Sequence record: MH791411.1
Reading direction: 5' to 3' (one strand)
From: Escherichia phage Ecwhy_1
DNA: 64,000 bases
Part shown: piece after piece, positions 1,524-46,644 of the stretch
How positions within the stretch are numbered: the first letter of the stretch is position 1
Layout: each line of letters opens with the position of its first letter
Position numbers and translations under genes: made by a program
The notes under the pieces: generated by a model
Databases searched by the model: none
What the model saw: only the letters and a program-made list of their open reading frames with translations
What the model was told of the DNA's origin: nothing

Positions 1524-4500
1524 ATGAATGAACGAATTATATGGAGTCCAAAAATGACTAATAATTTTAAGTTTCAACCTACACAGATGGCTGAAGCAGT
1601 ACAGAAGAAGCTTTTCATAAAAAGATTGCCTGAGTGGATGCAAGGCTTAGAAGATATTCAGAAAGTCAGTGATGATGTTATCCAACAATGGTTTAATCCG
1701 GCTGAAAACGAATTAGTTGACGGCTACATTGGTGACATGGGTTCTCCGGCAGCAGCAGGGAACATCTTCTTACACGAGTCAACAGTCGCACGTCAACTAT
1801 ATCAGTTGTCCACTGCGTATGTCTCAAGAAATGATGACTCCAGCATTCGTTCAATTCAATTTTATGATGATCTAGTTGGCTATATGAATCATTACGGTGC
1901 ACTAACCGAAAATGAAAGCCGTTTGTTTAATGGTAAGTTCTATTCATGGACCCCACCAATTAACCCAAATAAAATGAACAACTACAGTTCATACCTATGG
2001 GATTCCAAGAATAGCTATAATATCACAACTCCAGATTATATTGTAATGGAACGTGGTGCAGAAAATGGTAACACTTGGTCACTACAAAACTTCTGGTACA
2101 CATTAGGTGAAACTTTAGAAGATGGTACTATCCTAACTGAAGAACTAATGCAAGATTCCCGTTTTGTTCGTGCTCGTGCACCAATTATCGAATACAATAA
2201 AAATATCGAACTAATGAACTACGGTACTAAATTCCGTGGGACAGTTGATTTGTTCTCTGATATTATTAAACCTGAAGATATCGTACAAAAAGATATTAAC
2301 AGCGGTATACGTATTGATGGTATTATTCCACAAGATGGTATGCGTATTCTTTTCACCAGTATTGGTAACAATGGTGAAAACAACCGAATTTATAAAGTAT
2401 ATGTTAAACGTATGCAAGATGGAACACGTGTGTATGGTCTAGCATTAGATCCAGACGAAGAATCTGAAAGCCGTCCGAGTGGTGAACCACAAGATGGTGA
2501 CGTAGTTCTTATTATCAAAGGTAATGAATTTGGTAACAGTTCCATGTATTGGGACGGTTCTCATTGGATTCAAGCACAGTCTAAAACTTCTGTGAACGTA
2601 TTTCCACAATTCCAATTGTATGACCGTAATGGTGTTAAACTAAACAACACTACTACCTATCCATCAAGTACTTTTACTGGTTCTTCACTATTTGGTTTTA
2701 AAATTAACTATAATTATGCAACTGATAGCGTTTATGGTTATAATATTGAACTAGGTGATTACAATTATTACACATATGAGAATTTCCTACAATCAACTCG
2801 TTATACTTACGAGCATTTGGGTGTGGAAGTTGAAATTGATGGACTATATTACTATAACGTAATTGGTGAAGGTAATACAATGAACCTAGAAACTGATTGG
2901 GTTCGTAGTACTGAATACTCCAAACAATATGTTAAACAAACTCCACAGGTTGAACGTACAGTAATGTTCCGCGTGTTCAGTACTGTTTATGACATGGAAA
3001 GTTTCAAAGACCCAGTTGAAGGAATGTATGCTTATGTAATTGAAGTTGACAGAACTTATCAATATTACAAAGCAGAACGTGAAACATATCTTGATTGGCA
3101 TGTTATCGTTGGTGATGGGGTACAAAGCGTTAAGTACAATCATACATTTGAATTGGCACAAAAAGTACTAGATAATTCTGATGATATTATCGAACTAGTT
3201 GTTGATGGTGTGGAAATAAAAGAATACACCAAAACTGTAGTTAATAATCAAGTACAAAGTATTACAATTGATAGCTCTGTTGATTTGGATGAAGATTCTG
3301 TTGTACAAATCAGAACTTATAGTAGCACTATCACTCCTAATAAAGAGTTGGGTGCATATGAAGTTCCAATTAACCTACAAAATAACCCATATAATTCAAA
3401 CATTGAATACATCAACCAAGGTGATTACACCCTGCACTTCCAAGATATTATTCAAAAGAATATTACATCTGGTTCTGCTGATGACTTTAACAATTACGAA
3501 GAACGTTTGGCTGCTGGTTTGGTTAATAATGGTGTAGGCACTAAAATTATTCAAAACGAAGCGTCCATGTTACCACTAATGGCACATACCGCTAATGAAG
3601 ATATTGATTTGTTTGAATCAATCATGTTTATGCAAGCAGAATACTTCCGCTTCATTAACAAGTTCAACACTCAAATGCTTCGTTTGTATGAAGAAGACCC
3701 AAGTGCTTTTCTTGGTAATAGTGCATCAAACATCGTAGATGCGATTCTAACAGCTATTAATATGGGACGTGATAGTACATTCCCATTCTACTATGACAAC
3801 GTTGCAAGCACTGCTGGGTTTATTCGTGCATTTGTCCCACCAACTCCACAGTTCTTGGGTATTTTGCAAGCTTATACACCACAAAAAGCAACATTCTTAA
3901 CTGCTGGTAGTAAATCTAGCTGTTATAATATCAGTCATACTGGTATTATTTCAAAAGCATACCGTGTTATCAATGGTGTTGATAAAATGGATGACGTAGT
4001 TTTTGAATTGGAAAATCGTATCTTTAATAGTATTGATCTTACTTTCAAGGATATTGATTATAAACCAGTACTAAACAGTGAAGACCTATTCCCAACTCCA
4101 TATTTCACTGGTACTGATTATAGTGCAGAAGAAAAGAAAACTCTATTACTACGTGGTTACATTAACTTCACAGCAACCAATGGCATTAGTAACAGTACTC
4201 ATGATTATGATGCAAATAACTGGAGAACTTGGAACTATACTGGTAGTTATTATGTTGTTGATGGTCAACGTACTGAAATTCCTGCTCGTGGTTCATGGCG
4301 TGCAATCTATACTGACCAATATGGCACATATCGTCCAGCAACCCATCCGTGGGAAATGATGGGCTTCTCTCAACGTCCTACTTGGTGGAACCAAGAATAC
4401 GAACCAACCGCAGTTCAAGTTGGTGAACGTGAGGGTGATGTTGTTTATGTGTATGAAGCACTAGTAATGAATGAAAATGGTGATTTGGTCCCAAGTGGAT

Positions 4501-7500
4501 TGTGGGATATTGATGGTACTATCGGTGATAGCAGTACTGGTACTATTTTGTCAGGTGAACGCCGTGGTCAATATGACAAATACAAGCGTTTCGGTGTACA
4601 GCCATTTAAAATCACTAAGACTGGCGAGAAAACCAGTACTGGTATTGATATTTGTGAAGTTGAGTATATTGCACCTGAAGTTTTAGGTCTTGTTAGTGGT
4701 AATTTAGATCATCGTGCAGAACCGTGGTCTTATGGTGACATGGGTGACATGGAATTCACTTACATGAACACTGCGATGTTTGCTTATGACCAAATGCTTC
4801 TTCTATACAAAGCAAAACCAGCACAGTTTGCAAACTATTACTGGGATACCCGTAATGATAACCTTAAACCAGTTTATACTGATGGTTCACAGTTCCTTTA
4901 TGGTGAAACTCGTAAGCGTCTAAACTTTGACAGTACTACATTAGTACATGGTGAGAAAAACACCCGTACTATCGGTTATCAAATGTTTGTTAGTGACTAT
5001 TTGATGTATCAGAATAAGAACATTACCACCAAATACGGTGACGTTGTTCGTTCTTCTTATGTCAATGTCGCTCACAAAATTGGTGGCTTTACTAAAGCAG
5101 ACCAATTGACATTCACTGCTAAATCTTTCGGTTTGATTTCACAAGAAAACCAAACTATCGGTCTAGTTCGTTCCAATAACATTCGCGATGAGCAAATGAG
5201 TGCAGTAAAAATTACTTGGAATGGTAGTGCATATCAAATTGATGGTTATGATTTAGTTGGTGCTAAATTTAAATATAAAATTCCAGTTAAAAATGGAAGA
5301 AAAGTAACTCTTAAATTGGAAGACAGAACTGTTGTTCATTACAATGAATGGAAATCTGAAGGTACATTAGAATATGGTAAAATATTCAATACATACCAAG
5401 AAGTTTATACTTTCATTTGTGGATATGGTGAATATCTAAAAGAACATGGCTGGATTTTTGAAGATGTAAATGATAGTGGTACTCAACAAGACTGGACAAC
5501 TATTGCTAAAGACTTTGTTATTTGGAGTCAGAATAATTTAAGTACTGGTGAGTTCATCTCCTGCACTCCAAGTGCAGCTAATGCTAAATTTGGTGCGGAT
5601 TTTGGTTCAGTTCAATCTGTTACACAGAATAGTGGTGGTGTTTGGTCACTACTCGATGATGAAAACCAAGGTATCCGTCAATATGAAATCGAAACTTCGC
5701 GTATCGGTAACGTATTCACAGTGAGAACTACATCTGAATCACAAAAACGTATGGCGTTGATTCGTTTGAGCCTAAGTTCATATGAACACGCAGTTGTTTT
5801 TGATGATAAAACTATCTTTGGTGATTACATTTACCAACCAACTTATGGTGCTATTCAAGAATTGATTAAAATGTATGGTTACATTACTGGGTCATGGACT
5901 GGTCGCCTACAAGCACCTGGTTTCATTATCCTAGAAGCAGGAACTTTACCATCATTTGAAAAATTAGTAACTGATTTTGAATTATATTATAATAGTGAAA
6001 CTCCTGTGAGTGATGTTCAGCTTCAAGAGTTATCAAATCACTTGATTGGCTATCAAACTCGTGATTATCTACAACGTATGATTAGTAGTGATGTTAGTCG
6101 TGTTGATTTCTATAAAGGATTCATTCATGACAAAGGTACTAACCAAGTAATGGAAAAAGTACTACGCGTTTCTAAATCTTACGACACTGATGAATATAAA
6201 GCACTTCAGGAATGGGCATTTAAGATTGGTACTTATGGTAATATCAATGGTAAGAAAAATCTACAATTTAAACTAATCAATGACCAATTTAAACAACAAC
6301 CACAGATGGTTTCGTTTGATGTTAATGCTACATCAAATGGTACTGGTAATGGTATTGTTTATTACGGTGAACAAGGGGTTGACTCACGCTGGATTACTCG
6401 TCCAAATGGTAAGTTTTCATTCCCAATGCGTAGTGGAAGAAGTGAGAATATCCAACTTCCAGACATTGGTCCTGTAACACTAGATGAAATTTCATACGTT
6501 ACTAAAGATTTCAGTACTGCATATAATGATCGTATCAATTATATGAATAACAGTGGTGAAATCCCAGATTCTGTATGGATGTTTAAAGATGGTAATGATT
6601 TGTGGAATATTTTCGAACTAGTAGACACTGAAGTTGAGATGCTCTCTATCGTTCCAATTGAAAATACCGATGTATATGCAGAACAATTCTGTAAAGTAAC
6701 TCTAAGTGATGATATCCCACTAAATGATGGTGATTATTATTACTTTGTTGATGAAACTAACTTTATGCCAGATACATTGACTATAGAAAGTCAATATTAT
6801 ACTGCGGGTAATGACCCTAGAGTTATGGTAGTTCCGTTTGACACTTCAATCACTATTGACTTCACTGATCCTGATACTCGCCCACGCTTGTATCGTTATG
6901 TTTCACGATTCAGTACTGAAGAGATGCGTCAGGAATACATTGACAGAAAATATAGTTTTAAAGCTCCACAAAGTACTTTGTTTGACCGCCCAACCACATA
7001 TGATGAGCGTACTAACATTACTGCGTTGTACCTAAACGTGTTTGACCCAATCAACGGTGTTATTCCTGGTGCAGCGATGCAGAACGTTACCTACACATCT
7101 CCAGTTGACCCAGCACAATACAACAGCAATGGTGAATTGATTCAAGCATGGGGTGCTGATAAAGTTGGTCAGGTTTGGTGGAACACCAGCACTGCTTTCT
7201 ACTTAGATTACACTCGTGCAATCTATGATGCTGATGGTAATGTGGATGTTGATGCAACAAATGAATATAAACGTTATAACTGGGGCAGATTGCTACCGCA
7301 CAGTACTGTTGATGTTCTTGAATGGGTATGTTCACCAGTTGAACCATATAACTGGGACAAATACTGCAAAGACGTTGCTAACAAAAATAAAAACAACACT
7401 ATGTACCTACCAAGCGGAACCGCATTGGAAGATAATTATAGTACGTTCTTAGAATATGATAGCACAACTGATACTTATGTTACAAAATACTATTTCTGGG

Positions 7501-13885: not shown

Positions 13886-13913
13886 ATTATATCACATTCT
13901 TTGCGTTTGTCAA
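13886..13913 (-). promoter_or_regulatory. Consensus sigma70-type (early) promoter of the clpA-like gene
   Basis: Minus strand reads TTGACA-aacgcaaagaatgtga-TATAAT (16-nt spacer, TGa extended -10), about 40 nt upstream of ATG 13847. Confidence 0.75.
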
Positions 13914-37676: not shown

Positions 37677-38605
37677 TATACAGCCATTGGTGCTTTGATT
37701 GTTGGCATTGGATCGTAATTAACTAATTTGAAAGAATCCATAGTGAAATCTTCAATATCAGTAATAGTAGGATCTAGCCATAATTCTGGTAATGTACGTG
37801 GTTCACGTTGGAGTTGCTCTTTTACTTGTTCAATATGGTTTTGATAGATATGGCAGTCGCCACCATTCCAAATAAATTCACCAACATCTAACCCTGTAAT
37901 TTGTGCAATCATATGAGTTAGTAGTGAGTAACTACTAATATTAAATGGCACACCAAGGAATAGATCAGCACTACGTTGATGAAGAATACAACTTAGTTTA
38001 CCCTGTACAACACAAAACTGCACAAAGCTATGACAGGGTGGCAAAGTCATAGCATCAAGCTCACCAACGTTCCATGCACTTAGAATGTGACGACGACCGT
38101 ATGGATCAGTATTGATACCTTCAATAACTTGTTTTAGCTGGTCAGTTACACGACGCATAATAACACCATGTGAACCAGTATAATCAATAACTTTATACCC
38201 TTTATCTTTTAGTTCTTGAATTTCTTCAGTACTGGAACTGAATTTATAATCTTCCCATTCACGCCATTGTTTACCATAAACTGGGCCAAGCTCACCATCA
38301 GAATACCCAAGGCTTACACCTTGATTAAGGTAGTTGTCTGTCCAAATTGTTTTCTTTTCTACATCACGTGTCCCGTGTAAAATTTCACACAGACGACGCT
38401 CATCGTGAGAACCTTCAATAAACCATAACAATTCTGAAGTCATTGCTTTCCAAGCCAAACGTTTAGTAGTTACTGCTGGGAAACCTTCTTTTAGGTCAAA
38501 ACGCATTTGTTGTCCGATTAGCTTGATAGTGCCAACACCAGTACGATCAACGCTTTCGACACCTTGATCCAGAATTCTTTGATATAGTTCTTGTAGTTGT
38601 TTCAT
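37676..38605 (-). CDS. thyA: Thymidylate synthase (ThyA family)
   Basis: Near-colinear with recalled E. coli ThyA: DRTGVGT, GFPAVTTKR, ELLWFIEG, LGPVYGKQWR, catalytic LPPCH, RSADLFLGVPFNISSY (Asn retained, so dUMP-specific), GDCHIYQNH, IKAPMAV. Carries a ~30-aa insertion (YKFSSSTEEIQELKDKGYKVIDYTGSHGVIM). Confidence 0.95.
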   Translation of the reverse strand: MKQLQELYQRILDQGVESVDRTGVGTIKLIGQQMRFDLKEGFPAVTTKRLAWKAMTSELLWFIEGSHDERRLCEILHGTRDVEKKTIWTDNYLNQGVSLGYSDGELGPVYGKQWREWEDYKFSSSTEEIQELKDKGYKVIDYTGSHGVIMRRVTDQLKQVIEGINTDPYGRRHILSAWNVGELDAMTLPPCHSFVQFCVVQGKLSCILHQRSADLFLGVPFNISSYSLLTHMIAQITGLDVGEFIWNGGDCHIYQNHIEQVKEQLQREPRTLPELWLDPTITDIEDFTMDSFKLVNYDPMPTIKAPMAV

Positions 38606-39198
38606 TTTACGTCCTTGAAAAATGTAATAAAGTGTTCCATGTGTTTTTGTGTAGCATTACGTGAACCAATCCCAGTCCAATTACCGTGTGGTGCTGGTAT
38701 TGAGAATGTTTCAGTAAACTCTTTCAGTACTGTATCATAATAAAATACAGAGCGAGTGTTCATATCATAACAATATATTTCTGGATTGTCAACTGAATCC
38801 ATATACATCTGTACGGCCCATGCAGTTCCACCTGAAACTTGCGTAGGTGATGTAATATTTGCAATACAATATACTCTTTTTGTATTAAGTATCTGGTAAC
38901 TATTCCTTGCAAGTAAGTTATATACATACGAACCAGGCTTAGGAACTTTACGGCGTAAAGAGTAACATGCAATGTTTAATTGTTTTAATATTGAACTATC
39001 ACAAAGGATATTGGGTGGAATTTCTAATATAGTATTTTCATCTACGCTGCTTTGGTGACCCTTGAATGAAAAATTTATTACTTCAAATCCATTGTCTTTT
39101 GCATAGATAGAAAAAAGGCGGTCAGCACCTGCTGCCCCGCCACTGAAACATACATTAGATAAACCATTGATTGCTTCATCTAATTCTATTTTATTCAT
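38602..39198 (-). CDS. SLOG-superfamily (DprA/LOG/YpsA-like) Rossmann-fold protein
   Basis: CFSGGAAGADRLFSIYA (GGAxGxD), LLARNSYQILNTKRVYCIA and VSGGTAWAVQMY mirror the three conserved DprA/SLOG motifs. Its stop overlaps the thyA start (ATGA at 38602-38605). Confidence 0.5.
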   Translation of the reverse strand: MNKIELDEAINGLSNVCFSGGAAGADRLFSIYAKDNGFEVINFSFKGHQSSVDENTILEIPPNILCDSSILKQLNIACYSLRRKVPKPGSYVYNLLARNSYQILNTKRVYCIANITSPTQVSGGTAWAVQMYMDSVDNPEIYCYDMNTRSVFYYDTVLKEFTETFSIPAPHGNWTGIGSRNATQKHMEHFITFFKDVK

Positions 39199-39203
39199 TT
39201 ATA

Positions 39204-39857
39204 TTATTTTGCTTTACGTTCAGCAAATGCCTGTTTAACTTTCTCAATTGCTTTGGTTTGTGAAATTCCTTCTGGGATTTCAATATAGAAAGTTTTGCTA
39301 TCAGGTGCTACAGGTGTTGCTTGAACTTGTGGACGTAGAGATGGTTCTAAGTTGTAAGCACGTTCAAAGTGCTCTTTAGCCAACTGCTCATAACGTTGTG
39401 CATCTTTAAGTAGTTGCTCAACAATGGTAGCTTCTTCAACAGAAGTATCGACTTCTTGTGGCTTGAATGGGTTGTATTCTTTAACTTTACCATCTTCATG
39501 TTTTTTAGCATCATTATCATTGATTGCGTTGTTTAGAACATCAAGAGAAATCTTACTGTTTCCACCAACATGCATATCAATATCACAAGTACGTGCACGA
39601 CGCAAATGTTGTAGATTATGAAGAACATCTAGCATTTTGCGACCGTCTAGATGACCAATCTTATGCATAACTTCCCACAAATCTACATTCGATTGACCTT
39701 GATTCATTACTAAATCTGCAACAGATTGAGCATATGCTTCAGGAAGTGAGTCGCGATAAACAATGAGACAATGTTCTGGATCATCAGGGAGTGAACGCCA
39801 TACCACAAATACTCGTGAACCCGTATTACGTACTACACCAACGTGACGAATAGCCAT
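39204..39857 (-). CDS. Hypothetical protein (217 aa)
   Basis: RBS aaaGGAGaataataATG, tightly packed in the operon. No motif recognised. Confidence 0.7.
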   Translation of the reverse strand: MAIRHVGVVRNTGSRVFVVWRSLPDDPEHCLIVYRDSLPEAYAQSVADLVMNQGQSNVDLWEVMHKIGHLDGRKMLDVLHNLQHLRRARTCDIDMHVGGNSKISLDVLNNAINDNDAKKHEDGKVKEYNPFKPQEVDTSVEEATIVEQLLKDAQRYEQLAKEHFERAYNLEPSLRPQVQATPVAPDSKTFYIEIPEGISQTKAIEKVKQAFAERKAK

Positions 39858-40090: not shown

Positions 40091-40124
40091 TTTAATACTC
40101 TCCATGTATGTTGTTACAAATATA

Positions 40125-40152
40125 ATTATATCACCTTTTTCCAAGCTGTCCC
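40125..40152 (-). promoter_or_regulatory. sigma70-type promoter of the 76aa-217aa-SLOG-thyA operon
   Basis: Minus strand GGGACA-gcttggaaaaaggtga-TATAAT (16-nt spacer, TGa extended -10). Confidence 0.6.
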
Positions 40153-40155
40153 GCT

Positions 40156-40187
40156 GAAAAAAGTAGAGAACGGAATTTTCCGTTCTC
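40156..40187 (-). terminator. Rho-independent terminator after the VWA gene
   Basis: Minus strand gagaacgg-aaaatt-ccgttctc followed by tacTTTTTT. Confidence 0.75.
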
Positions 40188-40199
40188 ATTATTTAGTAC

Positions 40200-41609
40200 T
40201 TAGCTACGTTGACGCTTTTTGTCAGCTTCATATTCGTAGTGTACAGTTTCGCCAAATGGTGCTTGTTTGTTAGGATTACTGTGGATAACAAACAGTGTCT
40301 TACAGTAATCAGGATCACCCCATGACTGCCACGGCTCACCATCTGTAAACATAATAAGCTGTTTAGGCTTATAGTTGTCATGCTTCATATGAACCCATAC
40401 TGCTTCAAAGTCAGTACCACCACCACCTTTCACTGGATATTCGAGAATCTTACTCTCTTCACCAGTTTTGTAATCTTTCACAGTATAAACTTCAGTATCG
40501 AACGTCATGATACGGATTTTAAATTGTTTAAACTGCTTAGTGATACCCAGTACTTCACTGATGAAATCACGGAGCATATCTTCAGAGATAGAACCGGATG
40601 CATCTAGTGCAATTGCAATATCAATATCATCATCTGGTTTCATACCAGGGAAGATTGGATTCCCGTAGAATGAACCAGAACTACCAAAACCAGCACCCCA
40701 TGAACGACGATTAGGATTTTGATAAGTTGCATCAGACTTCAACCAGCTACGCAGTGTGCGGTGAAGTTTGGAACGCCAGTCAATCTTAGGTTCTTTGAAG
40801 TTGTTAATCATACGTGCGATTTCAGCAGGAGTACCACCTGCACGAGCAGCATTCATCATTGCTGTTTTGAAATCATCCATATAATCACGTTTTTGTTTAT
40901 CACTTGAACCACCTTCTTGACCTTCTTGTGGAACGTCATGCTGGTCGATTGTTGTACCTTTGCCTTTACCATCTTTGATATCACCAAAAGTACCGCGTGA
41001 TTTACCTTCACCCTCACCACTACCAGCCTGTGGATTTCCTTCACCTTCTCCGTCTTGATCCTGCTTATCTTCTTCTTCGAGAATGTTATAAATCTCTTCA
41101 GCAGTCATACCATCGTACTTTTTATCGTACAGCCATTGGCTTTGGATTTTACCAATTTTATCACGAACAAGAATCTGGTTAATTGCATAGTCAGCAGCAC
41201 GGTTATAACGCTGCGGGTCACGCATACCACGACGCAAGAAGTGGTCATATGCACAGTGAAGAATCTCATGACAGATAACTGCAATCAGGTTTTCATCGGT
41301 CAAACCTTCTGTCATTTCTTTAAGTTGTTCTTCAGTTACTTCAGGATGTTTCTCACGAATTGCTTCTTCGTATGCTGACTTTTTGGATTGGTCCTGAATA
41401 CCCATGATGAATTCTACGTTGTAGAATAAATGCTTACCATCTACAGCCAAAGTACGACACCATGTGTTGTTTGCAACTGGACGCAGACGAGAAGCCAGTA
41501 CACCAAAGAATGGGAATGTTAGCATTAAAGATGTGCGAGCTAAGATCAGACGATCTTGACATTCTTTCTGGAGAGCCGGAGTAACATCACTGAAACGTTT
41601 ATCTGACAT
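40200..41609 (-). CDS. VWA-domain protein with N-terminal HExxH putative metallopeptidase domain (DUF2201_N + DUF2201/VWA type)
   Basis: VICHEILHCAYDH (HExxH), RAADYAINQIL, MIDAS motif IALDASGSIS (DxSxS). Acidic/Gly-rich linker (EEEDKQDQDGEGEGNPQAGSGEGEG). RBS cGAGGAaatacaaATG. Confidence 0.85.
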   Translation of the reverse strand: MSDKRFSDVTPALQKECQDRLILARTSLMLTFPFFGVLASRLRPVANNTWCRTLAVDGKHLFYNVEFIMGIQDQSKKSAYEEAIREKHPEVTEEQLKEMTEGLTDENLIAVICHEILHCAYDHFLRRGMRDPQRYNRAADYAINQILVRDKIGKIQSQWLYDKKYDGMTAEEIYNILEEEDKQDQDGEGEGNPQAGSGEGEGKSRGTFGDIKDGKGKGTTIDQHDVPQEGQEGGSSDKQKRDYMDDFKTAMMNAARAGGTPAEIARMINNFKEPKIDWRSKLHRTLRSWLKSDATYQNPNRRSWGAGFGSSGSFYGNPIFPGMKPDDDIDIAIALDASGSISEDMLRDFISEVLGITKQFKQFKIRIMTFDTEVYTVKDYKTGEESKILEYPVKGGGGTDFEAVWVHMKHDNYKPKQLIMFTDGEPWQSWGDPDYCKTLFVIHSNPNKQAPFGETVHYEYEADKKRQRS

Positions 41610-41630
41610 TTGTATTTCCTCGTTTAGTTA

Positions 41631-41669
41631 AGATAAAAGAAGGATACCATGTGGTATCCTCCTTGTCAA
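41631..41669 (-). terminator. Intercistronic hairpin + T-run between MoxR and VWA genes (attenuator/partial terminator), overlapped by a weak promoter-like sequence
   Basis: Minus strand aggatacc-acat-ggtatcct followed by tcttttatc. TTGACA lies immediately upstream, with TATCCT (the hairpin 5' arm) 17 nt downstream. Confidence 0.5.
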
Positions 41670-41684
41670 CACTCTTTTTAATTA

Positions 41685-43013
41685 TTAACCAAGAGAGCGT
41701 GCTTTACGTACTAGGTCAGAGTACTTCATAACGAAGTCTTTAAACGCTGGTACATCTTTAATCGTAATCGCTACTTTATGAAGCGTGATGGTACGAATCG
41801 CCAGTACTGCCAGTTCTGCTTGAGTTGCAGAGAAGTTATGGTCTAGGAAGGTGATGAAGTTGTTGCACAGCTTACCCCAATCTTCCACTGGTAGACGTTG
41901 TTCTTGCTTCTCATTGTAGAGGTCGATAATTTTGTAAACCAGATTCAGAGTGATGAAGTAGTTCGCGGAAATATCAAGCGAAGCATCAATCTCTTTAATC
42001 TCACCCTGTAGGATGGACATGGTATCTGGTAGTTTAGCTACGTTATCAACATACTCGATGTATTCAGTTGCTACGCCTTCACCAACACGACCTGCAATCA
42101 TCGCACGGAACACTTCTTTATCAATGTTCTTAACTTTCTTCAGATCTTCGTAGCGTGCTACTGCTTCCCATGAACGTGGAGAAGTACCACCACAGTGAGA
42201 AGGATCTTGTGGGCTAAGGGTGTTGAAGTGTTTAGCACCAGTGTTGTTGATGAACGCTACAGTTGCTGGGTTCAAACGCTTACCAATCGCATAATCGTTA
42301 ATCCAATCTTGATGATAAGGAATCATTTCGATGTGGGTCATACGGTCACGCAGTGGTGTAGCTAGAGAGAACGTTACACCGCCATCAGTTTCACGGTTAC
42401 CTGCTGCGAGAATCAGTGCAGTCTTAGGTAGCTTCATCTCACCAACACAACGGTCGAGGATTAGCTGATAAGACGCTGCCTGTACAATCGGCATTGCAGA
42501 GTTGATTTCGTCAAACAGAATAACACCTTTCCAATCTGGAGACAGTTTCAGTACTTTAGGTGCTGCCCACACAACTGCTGTTTCAGCGATGTAATCTTGT
42601 GCACTAGCCAGTTCAGATTCAATCAGTTGCTTACCATCCATATCAAGGAACACTTTCTCTGGAACTGGGATACCGCGAAGGTCACTTGGTTCAATCTGAG
42701 ACAAACGGAAATCGATAAAGTTAGTGTCTTGGTCGATTAGTTTGGCTTCAAACGCTGCCAGTTCACGGCGAAGTTGATCAGCATTTTCAGTATCAGCTTC
42801 GATTTGTTGTTTCATGAACTCAATTTTTGCCACGTTATCTTTACGCAGTGGGTAGTTCTCATCAGCGTATTGACGTGCGATAGCAGATTTACCGATACCA
42901 GGGCTACCCCAAATCATCAGGCTATCTTGAATCATGTCAGCCAGTGCCATTGCTTCTTTAGCTTTCTTAGGAGTCAGTTTTACGTTCAGGATATCGTTGT
43001 TTTGAGTAGACAT
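41685..43013 (-). CDS. MoxR/CobS-like AAA+ ATPase (AAA_5 type)
   Basis: Walker A GSPGIGKS, Walker B VILFDEIN, sensor region ILAAGNRETDGG..PLRDRM. RBS caAAAGGAaaatatacATG. Confidence 0.85.
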   Translation of the reverse strand: MSTQNNDILNVKLTPKKAKEAMALADMIQDSLMIWGSPGIGKSAIARQYADENYPLRKDNVAKIEFMKQQIEADTENADQLRRELAAFEAKLIDQDTNFIDFRLSQIEPSDLRGIPVPEKVFLDMDGKQLIESELASAQDYIAETAVVWAAPKVLKLSPDWKGVILFDEINSAMPIVQAASYQLILDRCVGEMKLPKTALILAAGNRETDGGVTFSLATPLRDRMTHIEMIPYHQDWINDYAIGKRLNPATVAFINNTGAKHFNTLSPQDPSHCGGTSPRSWEAVARYEDLKKVKNIDKEVFRAMIAGRVGEGVATEYIEYVDNVAKLPDTMSILQGEIKEIDASLDISANYFITLNLVYKIIDLYNEKQEQRLPVEDWGKLCNNFITFLDHNFSATQAELAVLAIRTITLHKVAITIKDVPAFKDFVMKYSDLVRKARSLG

Positions 43014-43051
43014 GTATATTTTCCTTTTGTTGGATAAAATCGTTTAGGTTT

Positions 43052-43080
43052 CTATTATAGCCAATCCGTGGGCAAAAGTA
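43052..43080 (-). promoter_or_regulatory. Proximal sigma70-type promoter (P3) of the MoxR-VWA operon
   Basis: Minus strand TTTACT-tttgcccacggattggc-TATAAT (17-nt spacer). The -35 overlaps the foot of the hairpin. Confidence 0.45.
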
Positions 43081-43120
43081 AAGGAACTGTGTTAAAAGAA
43101 TTTTTAACTTATCAGTTCCT
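43068..43120 (-). terminator. Long leader hairpin with U-rich tail (terminator/attenuator) downstream of P1/P2
   Basis: 10-bp outer stem (aaaggaactg/cagttccttt) plus 7-bp inner stem (gttaaaa/ttttaac) with a 4-nt loop. On the minus strand it is followed by ACTTTTGCCC. Confidence 0.5.
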
Positions 43121-43186
43121 TTGTTACTTCATGAATCATCCGTGTATTTAAAAAGGCATTTCTCTTTGCCGTCTTGATGTGGTCAT
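43068..43186 (-). ncRNA. Candidate ~120-nt small RNA / leader transcript (P2 start to hairpin terminator)
   Basis: Consensus promoter P2 followed ~110 nt later by a terminator-like hairpin, with no convincing ORF between them (only an 11-codon ATG frame without SD). Purely structural inference. Confidence 0.2.
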
Positions 43187-43230
43187 TATATCACATCGTT
43201 CAGGCTTGTCAACAACTTTTTTATTTCTTT
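43187..43230 (-). promoter_or_regulatory. Consensus sigma70-type promoter P2 (copy 1 of a duplicated 44-bp cassette)
   Basis: Minus strand TTGACA-agcctgaacgatgtga-TATAAT (-35 at 43215-43220, -10 at 43193-43198, TGa extended -10). About 38/44 nt identical to the copy at 43271-43314. Confidence 0.75.
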
Positions 43231-43270
43231 TTCAATCTCACATCTTGTGATTTTGAAAACTTGCTTCGTG

Positions 43271-43314
43271 GTGGTCATTATAACACATCATTCGGCGTTG
43301 TCAACATCTTTTTT
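43271..43314 (-). promoter_or_regulatory. Consensus sigma70-type promoter P1 (copy 2 of the duplicated cassette)
   Basis: Minus strand TTGACA-acgccgaatgatgtgt-TATAAT (-35 at 43299-43304, -10 at 43277-43282). Lies 84 nt upstream of P2. Confidence 0.75.
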
Positions 43315-43329
43315 TCTTTATTTTCGAAG

Positions 43330-43707
43330 CTACATGTGCATCGAAAATAACATTCTAAAATCATCACCACACAATGTTAACTCTGTAACTATCATTGCGT
43401 CCGAGAGGTATATGTACTGCCCTTCTACATAGTAGGGTGAAGTACATATCCTATCAAGCGATGTAAAGATTATAGAACTTTTGAACTCTCTTTGCAAGGG
43501 GATTTTTGTAAATTCGTAAAGAATGTTTTCTTTACAAATTGTATATCCAAACTTGCTAAGTCTTAAACCACCGCCAGTTCTGAAATTTTCAAAAATTGAC
43601 ATCAGAAGCATACGGTCTGTTAATTCAGCGTCTGATCCATGTACTTCTCTAACTTTTAAAAGTACATCGTTTTGAAATTCAGTACTGTTGTGTGGTTCAG
43701 GAATCAT
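43330..43707 (-). CDS. Hypothetical protein (125 aa)
   Basis: Last gene of the long leftward late operon. An SD-like GGGGA sits upstream of the ATG. Confidence 0.6.
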   Translation of the reverse strand: MIPEPHNSTEFQNDVLLKVREVHGSDAELTDRMLLMSIFENFRTGGGLRLSKFGYTICKENILYEFTKIPLQREFKSSIIFTSLDRICTSPYYVEGQYIYLSDAMIVTELTLCGDDFRMLFSMHM

Positions 43708-43710
43708 AAA

Positions 43711-44103
43711 TTACATCCCCACGAAACCCTGTCTTGCTGCATATGAAGGAGCATCTTTAACTTTATAGTCTTGGACACCATCTTTACCAATTTTCGGACC
43801 CATATCTTTGGTTCCGAAGCAGCAATCAGTGGATTCATCAACTTCTTCAGTACTTTCATCATTATATCGAACATCCGATAAAATGTCACACGCTTTTTGA
43901 AGCTTTTCTACGATTTCTTTTTGATCTTCACCTGATTTAACCTTATCCACAATGTGGATAAGGCATTCGGTGATATCTTTAAGTAAATCGGTGGCAACAG
44001 CATCAGAAGGAGTCTCAACTGCAAAACTTTCTTCTTCAGTAGATTCTTCACTAGAAGTGATTTCATCTAATGCTTCAACCAATTCACGATAATTATATCC
44101 CAT
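43711..44103 (-). CDS. Acidic hypothetical protein (130 aa)
   Basis: RBS aGGGGAcaaataagATG. Glu/Asp/Ser-rich (SSEESTEEESF, NDESTEEVDESTD). Confidence 0.65.
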   Translation of the reverse strand: MGYNYRELVEALDEITSSEESTEEESFAVETPSDAVATDLLKDITECLIHIVDKVKSGEDQKEIVEKLQKACDILSDVRYNDESTEEVDESTDCCFGTKDMGPKIGKDGVQDYKVKDAPSYAARQGFVGM

Positions 44104-44104
44104 C

Positions 44105-45097
44105 TTATTTGTCCCCTAGAAATTGTTGATATTTCTTCTGGAGACTTTCGAAAATGTCTTCGACTTCTTCATCGCTTTCATCTTCTAGTTCTTCGTTACC
44201 TTCCACTGACTCATCACTCTCATTAACATTGAGTGGGTTGTCACCTAGAGCAGTACCTGGAAACTTAGGTTCAAATTTGTGAACACGGTTCTCGTTACCG
44301 TCATTGTCATAGTACTCTGGTTCAGGACGATTGTCAACATCTTCATCAACGACACGTCTCCAGTAGAACTTGTTACCCTTGGTAATAACAACAAAGTGGT
44401 CACCTTCTACACCATTAGTTTTAGCTTGACCGTCACGAACAGCATCAGCTTCAGTGTTGTAAGGACCAAAATCAGTACTGTCACCTTGTTCTTCATCTTC
44501 AGAGATGGTTAGGTCTGGTAGGAAAGTGTTTTCTTCAACTTTAACTTCAGTATCTGGGTTACCTTCTACTGAATATTCATCTTCTGGTTCGTCTTGAAGA
44601 CCAGCTAGAGATAGCATACGACTGAAATCGAATTCTTCTTCGATGATTTCTTCTTCTTCTTCCTCTTCTTCAACTGATTCTAGTTGAGGTTGACCGGAAA
44701 GATCTAAAGAAAACTCTTCTTCATCTGCAACACCAGGCTCTTCGAACTCTGCATCCATACTTACTTCTTCAGAATCACCACCAAAATCACCAGCTTCAGC
44801 AGATAGTGAGTCAGCAGCTACTTCCAATGGGTCTTCAACTGGTGCATCAATCGCACCATCCATTGTACCACCAACTTCTTCTTCAGCACCCGCACCAATG
44901 GAATCCATGTCGAGTGGAGCGATTGGTGGTAGAGAAGGGGTCATAGACCCCATAGAAGGAACTGGAGCAGCAACAGGAGAAGCTTGACGCTCTGCTTGAC
45001 CAGCTAATGCAAGCATACGAGATAGTGTTTCTAGATCTTCAGATTCTAGACCTGCGATATCGATTTTAACTTGTGCTTCATTAATTTTTTTAGCCAT
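44105..45097 (-). CDS. Hyper-acidic protein (330 aa)
   Basis: RBS aAAGGAtttatttaaaATG. Long Asp/Glu tracts including SVEEEEEEEEIIEEEFDF, with only the C-terminal third mixed in composition. Confidence 0.7.
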   Translation of the reverse strand: MAKKINEAQVKIDIAGLESEDLETLSRMLALAGQAERQASPVAAPVPSMGSMTPSLPPIAPLDMDSIGAGAEEEVGGTMDGAIDAPVEDPLEVAADSLSAEAGDFGGDSEEVSMDAEFEEPGVADEEEFSLDLSGQPQLESVEEEEEEEEIIEEEFDFSRMLSLAGLQDEPEDEYSVEGNPDTEVKVEENTFLPDLTISEDEEQGDSTDFGPYNTEADAVRDGQAKTNGVEGDHFVVITKGNKFYWRRVVDEDVDNRPEPEYYDNDGNENRVHKFEPKFPGTALGDNPLNVNESDESVEGNEELEDESDEEVEDIFESLQKKYQQFLGDK

Positions 45098-45119
45098 TTT
45101 AAATAAATCCTTTTAGTTA

Positions 45120-46631
45120 TCAATCATTCTTATTTAATGATTTTAAAATTTGCACTGTTTCATCCTTTTTACCAGATAGTAAAATGTCAGCAGCAATTAG
45201 AGAAACCTCATCACCACGCGTTAAGAGTACTGTAATTTTCTTAGCGTAAGGTGATTCTTTAATTCGTGAAGCCAATGATTGAACTTCATCACCAGGAGCA
45301 GGAACTTCAGGTTCTGGCTCTGATACAGGTTCTGGTTCTTTAGTAGGTTCAGCTTTTGGTTCAACTACATCAGTACTTGATACTTCAGCATCTACTTTCT
45401 CTTCAGGTTCTTCTTCTTTCTTATCAGCATGTTCTGCATCATAACGAGCAAGAATGTCATCAGCAGTTGATTTTGGAATCAATTTACCTTCTGCACTGAT
45501 AAAGCGGTTACCACCGATATAAGAATACTCTGTGCCTTTCTTAGATTTTACTTTAGTTCCGATTTTCATTGCACCAGAACTGTTATGGCGAATTATATCA
45601 CGTTGAGCAGCACGTTCAACACTTTTTGCAGCACTAGAATTTAGTTGTTTTTTAGTTTCTACATCAAACCATGCATTTTTTTGTTTAATGTATGTTTTAC
45701 CTTTATTTGAAGTAATGCGGTAACCATGTGGAACCACAACAGATTCAGTTTCTTCAATCTCTTCATCTGCTTCATTAATGGATTCTTTTGTTGCGAATAC
45801 TGGCTGTTTTACTGGTTGTTTAGGTTGTTCTGGCTTTTCACCTGAACCAAAACGTTGTTCACCTGATTCATGATCACCAGTTAGTGAAGGAAAATCACCA
45901 GGGTTAGCCTTAACAAATTGCTGATATGCATTAAAGATTACATGTGCATTTTGTTCTGGAATTACAACATTACCATCATTATCACAAAATTCTTTACCAT
46001 TCCATTCTGAACGAGTATTACCTTGTACTAATGTAGATTTAATTGGAATTAGTTTGTTTTTTGGTGCTAATTGGCGAGCAATACGCATACCTTCATCGGA
46101 AAGTTTACGTGTCATTGCTGGGTCAACTGGACGTCCAGATTTTGCATCAACAAAACGGTGATTTTTAGGGATGAATTTAAATCCACTAACTTCCATACCT
46201 GCTGGAATAGAAATATCATCAGCATATGGTGGAAGGATATAGAATTTTAGGGAGTTCCATTCTTTTTGTAGAGTTTCTTTTGAAACATTATATACACGGT
46301 GGTCATCTGCCATTAGTTCAGTGATAATTTCACTTTCAGTTAGTAGAATTCCATCTTTAGAATTGAAACGATTTTCACCAAGAAATGTACACTCTTTACC
46401 TTCAAGAATATATTTTTTACCAATTTTATATTCACTAGAAGATAGATTGTGCTCAACAATCTGTTGTCGAGCACTTGCGTACATGGATGGGTATTTTTTA
46501 GGGTCTACCATTAACATATTATTGTCGTTAAACCAGAAACCTTCTAGAAATACATATTTGCCACCAGTGTGAGAAGTATATACATATCCATTAGGTACTG
46601 TGGTAGTTTCAGTACTGAAAAAATTATCCAT
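45120..46631 (-). CDS. Hypothetical protein with internal ~90-aa domain duplication
   Basis: ATG 46631 (MDNFFSTE) has aaGGAGaatcaacacATG; the track start 46673 overlaps the upstream gene. Repeat: VPNGYVYTSHTGGKY...IVEHNLSSSEYKIGKKY...GENRFNSKDGILL vs VPHGYRITSNKGKTY...IIRHNSSGAMKIGTKV...GGNRFISAEGKLI. Pro/Glu-rich linker near the C-terminus. Confidence 0.7.
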   Translation of the reverse strand: MDNFFSTETTTVPNGYVYTSHTGGKYVFLEGFWFNDNNMLMVDPKKYPSMYASARQQIVEHNLSSSEYKIGKKYILEGKECTFLGENRFNSKDGILLTESEIITELMADDHRVYNVSKETLQKEWNSLKFYILPPYADDISIPAGMEVSGFKFIPKNHRFVDAKSGRPVDPAMTRKLSDEGMRIARQLAPKNKLIPIKSTLVQGNTRSEWNGKEFCDNDGNVVIPEQNAHVIFNAYQQFVKANPGDFPSLTGDHESGEQRFGSGEKPEQPKQPVKQPVFATKESINEADEEIEETESVVVPHGYRITSNKGKTYIKQKNAWFDVETKKQLNSSAAKSVERAAQRDIIRHNSSGAMKIGTKVKSKKGTEYSYIGGNRFISAEGKLIPKSTADDILARYDAEHADKKEEEPEEKVDAEVSSTDVVEPKAEPTKEPEPVSEPEPEVPAPGDEVQSLASRIKESPYAKKITVLLTRGDEVSLIAADILLSGKKDETVQILKSLNKND

Positions 46632-46644
46632 GTGTTGATTCTCC

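Follow-up and report, generated by a model that had tools for sequence, protein, structure and literature searches.

A jumbo-phage copy of the N4 gp24/gp25 gene pair, predicted to encode a MoxR-class ATPase and a VWA/HExxH protein, with a possible role in counter-defence

The 64,000-nucleotide stretch of Escherichia phage Ecwhy_1 analysed here (MH791411.1; the window) belongs to an Asteriusvirus-like E. coli jumbo phage, and EC.P1 and fEgEco12 are 99.9% identical to it. It carries two genes that, judged by their sequence relationships, are the jumbo-phage copy of an already known pair, the N4 gp24/gp25 genes of large lytic phages. The first gene (41685..43013, minus strand) encodes a MoxR-class AAA+ ATPase of 442 aa, which is N4 gp24-like and falls in PHROG 1297, and the second (40200..41609, minus strand) a VWA/Zn-peptidase-like protein of 469 aa, which is N4 gp25-like and falls in PHROG 1314, a group mislabelled HNH endonuclease. 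The initial annotation had described an ATPase gene and a gene combining an HExxH with a MIDAS-containing VWA domain, both GC-richer than their surroundings. Both ORFs lie on the minus strand where it had placed them, the architecture holds, and the GC content is 43.9% for the ATPase gene, the most GC-rich 1.3-kb stretch of the window, and 41.3% for the VWA gene, against a window average of 37.3%. Its remark that the role of such pairs in phages is undefined, however, overlooks the long-annotated N4 gp24/gp25 core-gene pair. What is new here is a leader hairpin, conserved and resembling a terminator, that separates the ATPase gene from the strong promoters, together with clade-specific insertions, one in each protein. 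We put forward, tentatively but as a serious possibility, that the pair may be an early-expressed, ATP-driven remodelling and cleavage machine serving counter-defence.

The affiliation with N4 is seen most directly in LUZ7, whose 'N4 gp24-like' protein matches the ATPase profile at 1e-46 and whose 'N4 gp25-like' protein matches the VWA-peptidase profile at 5e-56; in tblastn searches against the window, the same two proteins gave E-values of 5e-21 and 5e-29. The records of phAPEC6, K64-1 and Muenster are already labelled N4 gp24/gp25-like. More than 700 phage records, among them N4-like, V5-like and Rak2-like ones, contain homologues of the pair, as do about 18,000 protein clusters (17,917 at E≤1e-10), and the host-genus counts for the two genes are almost equal across 724 and 812 phage records. 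Among the fetched loci with enough upstream sequence, about 30 in number, the ATPase gene was upstream of the VWA-peptidase gene and on the same strand in every case. The two are usually adjacent, with about 1 kb of small ORFs between them in alphaproteobacterial elements, and the bacterial occurrences lie in prophage-like or mobile contexts with a ligase and a sliding clamp. No ATPase-VWA gene fusion was seen among the 147 best cluster representatives, the long proteins being explained by inteins or inserts. Genes annotated as encoding virion structural proteins immediately precede the pair; frequent neighbours are ThyA in the source phage and a 5'-3' exonuclease, ligase, clamp, helicase and DNA polymerase in other loci. 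Two conserved flanking genes (X and Y) were not companions of the pair in V5-like, N4-like and alphaproteobacterial loci, and are therefore regarded as a lineage feature, not as a proven third component. No PADLOC model matches the pair and NCBIfam gave no useful match, and the pair goes unmentioned in a jumbo-phage review, the CRISPRi-ART paper, other phage Tn-seq preprints and the PA5oct omics paper.

The two motifs first noticed in the ATPase are present, GSPGIGKS, the Walker A motif, at aa 36-43 (nt 42885-42908) and ILFDEIN at aa 165-171 (nt 42501-42521), the latter containing Walker B (ILFDE, aa 165-169). Within these motifs, sets of 119 and of 34 homologues show no variation at G36, K42, S43, D168 or E169, and Walker A and B are constant in the V5-like and N4-like members too. 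Three further residues, N206 (AAGN), R224 and R280 (SPRSW), are invariant across the family, V5-like and N4-like members included, and we assign them from position alone as sensor-1, Arg finger and sensor-2, respectively; in the structure model, R224 directly precedes strand 226-230, as expected for an Arg finger before core strand 5. The protein had been called AAA_5/MoxR-like, and of this the MoxR class stands whereas AAA_5 is not called on it directly: the Pfam matches of the 442-aa protein are AAA, just above its cut-off (21.5 against 21.2 bits), and AAA_3, below its own (17.9 against 27 bits), with AAA_5 absent. Shorter homologues do match the AAA_5, AAA_3 and bpMoxR models (16, 13 and 10, respectively, of the 34 family members, at E<0.001), and we assign the MoxR class because family members match these MoxR-type models, the fold is that of NorQ/CbbQ and the catalytic residues are invariant. 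The missed AAA_3/AAA_5 match is probably due to a clade-specific helical hairpin (about aa 54-98), which would break the alignment to the models; it is by this insert of about 45 aa that the jumbo-phage ATPase is longer than the N4-like ones. The top 12 Foldseek matches of the model (pLDDT 85) against the PDB were all NorQ chains (E 5e-7 to 1e-5, target TM-score 0.54-0.61), and CbbQ2 was also retrieved. A helical extension of about 140 aa forms the C-terminus, and the protein would be expected to assemble as a hexameric ring.

The motifs reported for the second protein are likewise in place, HEILHCAYDH at aa 114-123 (nt 41241-41270) and DASGS at aa 336-340 (nt 40590-40604), and profile searches recover the proposed domains, with DUF2201_N (PF13203) at 125.8 bits (cut-off 23.2), DUF2201 VWA-like (PF09967) at 77.8 bits (cut-off 26.4) and VWA at an E-value of 5e-4. 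An N-terminal DUF2201_N domain, bearing the HExxH (H114, E115, H118) and D140, is followed by an acidic, Gly-rich, disordered linker (aa 187-232) with an invariant D222-x-H224, and by a C-terminal VWA domain whose MIDAS motif (DxSxS...T...D; D336, S338, S340, T399 and D423) is complete. The four HExxH-domain residues and the five MIDAS residues show no variation in 120 homologues, the most distant of which are 37% identical. Structure prediction places the HExxH in a helix (aa 105-125; pLDDT 91-95 across aa 101-120), before which the jumbo-phage peptidase carries an insert relative to the shorter N4-like gp25. Inteins typically insert at functionally critical sites, and in one homologue an intein (Hint plus LAGLIDADG) sits immediately after the HExxH, which we count as support for the functional importance of the site. 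Searches of PDB sequences with single proteins and profiles matched only the Walker A region, the start of the VWA domain and, as the sole and marginal match of the HExxH region (E 0.8), minigluzincin (MJ1213); no PDB fold match was obtained for the N-terminal DUF2201_N domain. Our searches found no characterised DUF2201_N/DUF2201 member, and we know of no demonstration of proteolysis for any DUF2201_N protein. We speak of a putative metallopeptidase with a putative zinc site. The labels 'HNH endonuclease', anti-sigma factor and 'T4 gp25-like' were not supported by the analysis; many records mislabel the peptidase, and for the source phage the practical value of the present work is mostly corrective.

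Three sigma70-type promoters had been claimed for the pair. The consensus matches are genuine, but all three lie outside the range 40156-43013 to which they had been ascribed. P1 (43277..43304, minus strand; TTGACA-16-TGTTATAAT) matches the sigma70 consensus at 12/12 positions and has an extended -10 TG and an A-rich upstream tract; its -10 reads TACAAT in G17, and it is missing from the Klebsiella Alcyoneusviruses. P2 (43185..43212, minus strand; TTGACA-16-TGATATAAT), also 12/12 with an extended -10 TG, retains its perfect match in G17, K64-1 and Muenster. The proximal promoter, P3 (43054..43082, minus strand; TTTACT-17-TATAAT, 10/12), lies about 35 nt from the ATPase ATG; it is conserved in G17 and reads TATCAT in K64-1 and Muenster. 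Perfect sigma70 sites number 3 in the 64 kb, against 0.12 expected, and the T4-type late promoter motif TATAAATA is found nowhere in the window. Between P2 and P3 is a terminator-like leader hairpin (43075..43130, minus strand; -17.4 kcal/mol, z -4.3) followed by UUUUG, whose 3' arm contains the -35 of P3 and which may act as an attenuator or mark the 3' end of a short leader RNA. It is annotated as a terminator in the G17 record, and the leader region is about 99% identical to that of G17, against 87% for the CDS; by single-sequence folds, K64-1 has a hairpin of different sequence at the equivalent position. An Rfam search of the leader and intergenic regions gave no match.

The hairpin reported between the two genes was recovered (41637..41664, minus strand; -17.5 kcal/mol, z -4.3) as a 12-bp stem followed by UUUUAUCUU, and it may be a partial terminator; the suggestion that it sets the stoichiometry of the two products is plausible. 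It overlaps a weak promoter-like site (TTGACA-17-TATCCT, 41669-41641), and its stem is retained in G17 with an A-U to G-U change, but in many homologous pairs the genes abut or overlap, so that the hairpin is not general to the family. The pair is closed, as had been noted, by an intrinsic terminator (40156..40187, minus strand) with a 9-bp GC-rich stem and UACUUUUUUC, in which the hairpin at 40187-40166 and its T6 run fold at -14.2 kcal/mol (z -6.4); it is conserved in G17, whose record annotates a terminator there. For the further assertion that the pair is 'clearly early', the promoter consensus is the only basis, and P1 and P2 are cut off from the ATPase gene by the conserved terminator-like hairpin. 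Given its own sigma70 promoters and terminator, expression of the pair most likely falls shortly after infection and relies on unmodified host RNA polymerase.

Bas54, a V5-like phage (Vequintavirus MaxBurger), is the only family member with genetic data. Its 'MoxR ATPase', bas54_0063, matches our ATPase family profile at 3.5e-70 and the source-phage ATPase by BLASTP at E 8e-33 (24% identity), and its putative metallopeptidase, bas54_0055, belongs to the VWA-peptidase family. According to the HIDEN-SEQ preprint of 2025 (10.1101/2025.11.20.689424), the ATPase is dispensable on E. coli K-12 and needed against the predicted defence system DS-28, a two-gene DefenseFinder system, and the bas54_0063 knock-out is specifically sensitive to cloned DS-28. 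Resampling of K-12 vs CFE311 in the same preprint gives a log2FC of -7.23 for bas54_0063 (adjusted p 0) and of -2.20 for bas54_0055 (adjusted p 0.009), the neighbouring bas54_0056 being unaffected, and on K-12 insertions were tolerated at 60/64 and 81/86 TA sites of the two homologues (10.1101/2025.11.20.689424). The preprint's supplementary table has bas54_0055 depleted on the DS-28-carrying strain. The only genes that its authors name are the ATPase and an unrelated 99-aa gene; the peptidase is not among them (10.1101/2025.11.20.689424). The Bas54 arrangement differs in that about 3.6 kb separates its two genes, which are on opposite strands, and in that a third gene, bas54_0140, is also needed against DS-28; no homologue of the latter occurs in the window. 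The host-directed role guessed at in the initial annotation remains plausible and is consistent with the DS-28 genetics, which come from a distant homologue in a different phage family, and an anti-defence role in the source phage would be carried over by analogy.

The proposed mechanism is that the two genes specify a machine of the phage N4 gp24/gp25 family, built of two components, that remodels proteins. Its VWA/MIDAS domain would seize a target protein inside the infected cell, the MIDAS site, as in other MoxR-VWA systems, gripping an acidic residue of the target or docking onto the ATPase ring. ATP hydrolysis by the MoxR ring would then pull or twist the VWA protein with its bound target, and the flexibly tethered zinc domain would cut the target or itself become switched on, with the effect of inactivating a host immune protein or removing a phage signal that triggers immunity. 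Of these elements the contact between ATPase and VWA protein, the proteolysis and the identity of the target are what we infer, and support for the reading comes from domain identities, invariant catalytic residues, gene linkage, the promoter and terminator consensus and the genetics of the distant homologue. Several observations speak against counter-defence. The genetics come from a single preprint on a homologue that is 24% identical and from a different phage family, in which the two genes stand apart on opposite strands, and the effect of the peptidase is far weaker than that of the ATPase (-2.2 vs -7.2). Neither a PADLOC match for the pair nor a PDB fold match for the N-terminal domain was obtained, and proteolysis is not known for any DUF2201_N protein. 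The N4 homologues are middle genes, not early ones, an ATPase orthologue is among the virion-associated proteins of phAPEC6, and a terminator-like hairpin follows the two strongest promoters.

The virion finding bears on another explanation, in which the pair is a morphogenetic chaperone that helps the very large virion, or packaged proteins, to assemble or mature, part of it travelling with the particle. In CsCl-purified virions, mass spectrometry found 6 peptides (19% coverage) of the orthologue, phAPEC6 gp265c, the pair is directly downstream of annotated structural genes, N4-like roseophages have a second structural module near their gp24/gp25 homologues, and there is a precedent in archaeal viruses, a morphogenetic role having been proposed for the MoxR/VWA proteins of ATV and a tail-assembly MoxR-vWA system being cited in PMC7159879. 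Yet each of the two homologues is dispensable to Bas54 on K-12, the VWA-peptidase is missing from the phAPEC6 virion list, and thymidylate synthase is on it, so that abundant non-structural proteins probably co-purified. The 121Q record, moreover, marks the neighbours as structural but neither the ATPase nor the peptidase, and host-type promoters and a terminator of its own set the pair apart from other operons; we consider a chaperone of this kind quite unlikely. Replication offers a different context: in the N4-like phages the homologues are core, are classed as middle (replication-phase) genes and adjoin those for the helicase and DNA polymerase, and both the breadth of their conservation and the ligase and clamp beside the bacterial copies would suit a general host-takeover or replication-linked remodelling unrelated to immunity, such as the removal or degradation of a host DNA-bound or membrane complex, with an indirect DS-28 phenotype. 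This we hold to be unlikely, given that the homologues are dispensable on K-12 with no fitness cost reported and that the sensitivity of the ATPase knock-out is specific to cloned DS-28.

Least probable, in our view, is a metal-cofactor insertion or enzyme-activation chaperone like NorQ/NorD, CbbQ/CbbO, CobS/CobT or BchI/BchD, in which the role of the HExxH domain would be to bind or hand over a metal, not to cut proteins, and a phage or host metalloenzyme, for instance of nucleotide metabolism, would serve as client. NorQ and CbbQ are indeed the top structural matches of the ATPase, and genes for nucleotide metabolism or replication often adjoin the pair. No consistent client gene recurs across the phage groups, however, no nor, cbb, cob or bch client operon was found in the source-phage neighbourhood or in related loci, and a defence-specific phenotype without a cost on K-12 would be left unexplained. 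Nor are the known metal-insertion VWA partners known to have a DUF2201_N-type HExxH domain.

The counter-defence reading remains the one we prefer, and, if true, an ATP-dependent counter-defence protease would add a new mechanistic class to anti-defence, with consequences for predicting host range. The pair is among the most widely conserved uncharacterised modules in large lytic phages, and V5-like and Rak2-like carriers are under consideration for therapy. One more point against the preferred reading is that a pair core to all N4-like phages and present in hundreds of large phages seems too conserved to serve against one uncommon defence system, which suggests a more general target. A bolder and rather doubtful extension is that N4-like, V5-like and Rak2-like jumbo phages share a general ATP-powered 'immune-protein shredder', in which a MoxR ring and a MIDAS adaptor with a tethered zinc peptidase would cut defence proteins or phage triggers; it would represent an enzymatic, energy-dependent anti-defence class, the mirror of bacterial MoxR-vWA-peptidase defence systems.

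Those bacterial systems, the MoxR-vWA ternary conflict systems of the VMAP, iSTAND, FtsH and beta-propeller types (Kaur et al. 2020), share with the phage pair a MoxR and vWA core, the vWA often being fused to peptidase effectors, and are thought to act in virus-host conflict; the bpMoxR Pfam model is matched by the ten ATPase family members mentioned above. They differ in being host defences with an obligatory third component, whereas the present pair is phage-encoded and, if anything, anti-defence; the flanking genes contain no VMAP, iSTAND, FtsH or beta-propeller domains, and PADLOC gave no match. NorQ/NorD and CbbQ/CbbO are also two-gene systems of an ATPase and a VWA protein, they provide the closest solved structures for the ATPase, and their VWA domain is similar; in NorQ-NorD, the VWA domain inserts a finger into the ATPase pore, and a NorD linker is remodelled as ATP is hydrolysed (PMC13036017). 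Their VWA partners serve in metal insertion or Rubisco activation, with the DUF2201_N HExxH not known there, and unlike NorQ and CbbQ the source-phage ATPase has the extra helical C-terminal region and is found where nor and cbb clients are absent. In the N4-like phages (Schitoviridae), gp24 and gp25 (vWFA) are core genes homologous to the pair and stand in the same order, ATPase first and VWA-peptidase second. In LUZ7 a 154-aa ORF separates the two genes, which lie inside the replication module, and the N4 homologues are reported as middle genes, whereas the pair of the source phage has sigma70-type promoters of its own.

The sequence belongs to a Rak2/121Q-type, Asteriusvirus-like jumbo phage of E. 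coli; over region 40100-43100 it shares 99.9% identity with EC.P1 and fEgEco12, and 87% with 121Q, G17 and phAPEC6. Two long minus-strand ORFs fill the interval singled out in the initial annotation, a MoxR-class ATPase gene (41685-43013, 442 aa) followed by a VWA-peptidase gene (40200-41609, 469 aa). All four protein motifs quoted there lie at the expected positions, and the impression that the pair is GC-richer than its surroundings holds up for the ATPase gene, whose 43.9% GC is the highest in the window, the mean being 37.3%. Profile searches bear out the domain labels in part: on the second protein Pfam finds both DUF2201_N ('putative metallopeptidase', 125.8 bits) and DUF2201 ('VWA-like', 77.8 bits), but on the ATPase it makes no AAA_5 call, returning only a borderline AAA match (21.5 bits) and AAA_3 below threshold.

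PHROGs assigns the ATPase to phrog_1297, 'ATPase', and a database search recovered 272 relatives. Among 34 representative family members, Pfam matches AAA_5 in 16, AAA_3 in 13 and bpMoxR in 10, and distant, shorter relatives (370-400 aa, ~32% identity) carry AAA_5, AAA_3 and bpMoxR. AlphaFold gives a confident model (pLDDT 85, pTM 0.78), for which the twelve best PDB hits are chains of the MoxR ATPase NorQ; CbbQ, another MoxR ATPase, comes next. Invariant across the family are G36, K42 and S43 of Walker A, D168 and E169 of Walker B, N206 (in AAGN), R224 (directly before strand 5) and R280, and this invariance persists when V5-like and N4-like members are added.

Conservation in the VWA-peptidase was assessed over 120 homologues, with identity down to 37%. 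H114, E115, H118, N136, D140, N144, D222 and H224 are invariant in the N-terminal half, as are D336, S338, G339, S340, T399 and D423 in the VWA domain; these residues make up a full HExxH site and a complete MIDAS motif, with D140, in the motif AADYAIN, as candidate third ligand. In the predicted model (pLDDT 75) the N-terminal alpha/beta domain and the VWA domain are both confident and are joined by two disordered linkers (aa 187-232 and 292-325); the N-terminal fold could not be placed among solved structures. Two homologues carry inserts at these motifs: P0292 (794 aa) has an intein (Hint + LAGLIDADG_3) directly after HEVLH, its HExxH motif, and P0298 (733 aa) has a long insert within the NxAxDY helix, in keeping with a critical functional role of both motifs. 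The protein also matches PHROG 1314 (1.6e-127), labelled 'HNH endonuclease', a label that finds no support in our analysis. GenBank phage records systematically misannotate the family, either with this label or as 'anti-sigma factor' or 'Zn-dependent hydrolase (T4-gp25-like)', the last being a corrupted form of 'N4 gp25-like'.

A word-indexed search returned 2,779 relatives of the VWA-peptidase, and an exhaustive profile search 24,736 cluster representatives at E<=1e-3, 17,917 at 1e-10 and 6,479 at 1e-30. By tblastn, 724 phage records contain the VWA-peptidase and 812 a member of the ATPase family, with near-identical genus counts; these records come from Rak2-like and PA5oct-like jumbo phages, from V5-like and N4-like phages, and from phages infecting Campylobacter, Cronobacter and Pectobacterium. 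In ~30 metagenomic and genomic loci, the VWA-peptidase gene is downstream of the ATPase gene on the same strand. In alphaproteobacterial elements the two genes are separated by small ORFs spanning ~1 kb, and in V5-like phages the genes stand on opposite strands, ~3.6 kb apart. The bacterial contexts examined look like mobile elements: one contains DUF4942 alongside a ligase and a sliding clamp, and another has transposases as well as a reverse-transcriptase protein of 1,226 aa. The latter is encoded divergently to the bacterial pair, among transposase genes, at 2906-6586 of a Mesosutterella porci contig (L038), a neighbourhood that may be a defence-island context.

In the window the pair is flanked by genes X (43330-43707, 125 aa, phrog_15638) and Y (39204-39857, 217 aa, phrog_15894), both of unassigned function. 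The same two genes flank the pair in 11-12 distant phage-like contigs of aquatic or marine origin, in which identity of the VWA-peptidase falls to ~40%; neither was found near the pair in V5-like, N4-like or alphaproteobacterial loci. In phAPEC6, X is without annotation and the homologue of Y (gp262c) is represented by one peptide in virion mass spectrometry. Three genes upstream of the pair (43711-46673, minus strand) have matches among PHROG families that are labelled as virion structural proteins; one of the three products is very acidic (330 aa), and one, of 130 aa, bears a weak resemblance to internal head proteins of phiKZ. The 198-aa protein encoded between Y and thymidylate synthase (38602-39198, minus strand) matches phrog_768 ('DprA-like') and has a weak match to YAcAr, a SLOG-family domain; domains of this family are frequently linked to nucleotide signalling in conflict systems.

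A further feature of the locus is the leader upstream of the ATPase gene (43014-43330, minus strand), which has counterparts in loci L001 (8926-9240), L047 and L048. The three sigma70-type promoters described initially are indeed present on the minus strand: P1 (43304-43277) and P2 (43212-43185) are perfect consensus sites with an extended -10, and P3 (43082-43054) matches at 10/12 positions. Perfect sites number three in the 64 kb, against 0.12 expected, and only eleven sites score >=11/12. The sole other perfect TTGACA-16-TGnTATAAT promoter in the window is at 13886-13913 (minus strand). The T4-type late-promoter motif TATAAATA has zero copies in the 64 kb, where ~7 would be expected by chance (sd 2.8). 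Between P2 and P3 lies a hairpin (43075-43130, minus strand; -17.4 kcal/mol, z -4.3) followed by UUUUG and marked as a terminator by the authors of G17; transcripts from the strong P1 and P2 must therefore cross a conserved terminator-like structure, and the promoter nearest to the gene, P3, is the weaker one. From P2 to the start codon the sequence is ~99% identical to that of G17, against 87% for the coding sequence, and the Klebsiella phages K64-1 and Muenster, from which P1 is absent, retain P2 and P3 and, at the same position, a hairpin whose sequence differs. The leader has no match in Rfam; its hairpin could represent a short leader RNA or an attenuator.

A second hairpin (41637-41664, minus strand; -17.5 kcal/mol, z -4.3), with a short U-run, separates the two genes; it is retained in G17, where an A-U pair has become G-U. 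The suggestion that it sets their stoichiometry is possible for the window pair and is not a family feature; in many homologous pairs the two genes abut or overlap. The strong terminator said to close the pair is found at 40166-40187 (minus strand) and is conserved.

Our literature search found no biochemical study of any family member, and the sole genetic data come from a HIDEN-SEQ preprint (10.1101/2025.11.20.689424) on Bas54, which we confirmed to be phage MaxBurger, with bas54_0063 a member of the ATPase family. Its Extended Data Table 8 compares depletion on K-12 BW25113 and on E. coli CFE311, the source of the predicted two-gene defence system DS-28, against which the preprint reports the ATPase gene to be needed. 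The ATPase gene bas54_0063 is depleted with a log2FC of -7.23 (adjusted p 0) and the DUF2201 homologue bas54_0055 with -2.20 (p 0.0009, adjusted p 0.009), while bas54_0056, which adjoins the latter, stands at -0.08; bas54_0063 and bas54_0055 are both rated non-essential on K-12 (10.1101/2025.11.20.689424). The depletion of the peptidase gene is our reading of the table and is not discussed by the preprint's authors. The sheets 'K-12 vs CFE303' and 'K-12 vs CFE311' share the same command line and numbers, those of the CFE311 comparison, and the CFE303 data appear to be absent from the table.

Detection of the phAPEC6 ATPase in purified virions, together with the structural genes adjoining the pair, would suit an assembly chaperone or virion component, but thymidylate synthase is on the same virion list, the 121Q record puts no structural mark on the pair and the Bas54 homologues are dispensable, so that we consider such a role unlikely. 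A metal-insertion chaperone, which accounts for the structural similarity, seems quite improbable, as it leaves unexplained the HExxH fusion, the absence of a client gene and the defence-specific phenotype. A role in general takeover, or in remodelling linked to replication, fits the breadth of conservation better than an anti-defence role against a single system, and we regard it as a rather unlikely, if reasonable, alternative.

The reading we prefer, with somewhat less than even confidence, is that the pair may be an ATP-driven machine for remodelling and cleavage that serves counter-defence. MIDAS sites generally capture an acidic residue of their target. In the NorQ-NorD pair, the VWA domain inserts a finger into the pore of the ATPase, and a NorD linker is remodelled by ATP hydrolysis (PMC13036017). 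To the domain identities, conserved residues, linkage and consensus signals established here we add, by analogy, a mechanism whose every mechanical element we infer: the VWA domain would dock on the MoxR ring, capture the target, or both; ATP hydrolysis would strain the long linkers; and the tethered HExxH domain would then cleave the target or become unmasked. More speculatively, the invariant D222-x-H224 in a disordered linker might serve the MIDAS or the zinc site as an internal pseudo-ligand.

The pair belongs to a known, annotated phage family that is mechanistically uncharacterised. The 'N4 gp24-like' and 'N4 gp25-like' proteins of LUZ7 match the ATPase and VWA-peptidase family profiles (1e-46 and 5e-56), the phAPEC6 record already labels the pair 'MoxR ATPase' and 'N4 gp25-like protein', and gp24 and gp25 are listed in the core gene set of the N4-like phages, being described as middle genes for N4 itself (PMC4193335). 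Membership in the bacterial MoxR-vWA ternary defence systems was rejected, since no third component turned up and PADLOC gave no match. New for this lineage are the clade-specific insertions in both proteins and the conserved promoter-hairpin-promoter leader; the connection of the initial hypothesis to recent genetics is also new. Compared with its shorter relatives, the ATPase clade of the window has a ~45-residue helical hairpin insert (aa 54-98) that follows the Walker A helix, and its beta-hairpin region is longer; the whole ATPase family differs from NorQ-size proteins in an extra helical C-terminal region of ~140 aa.
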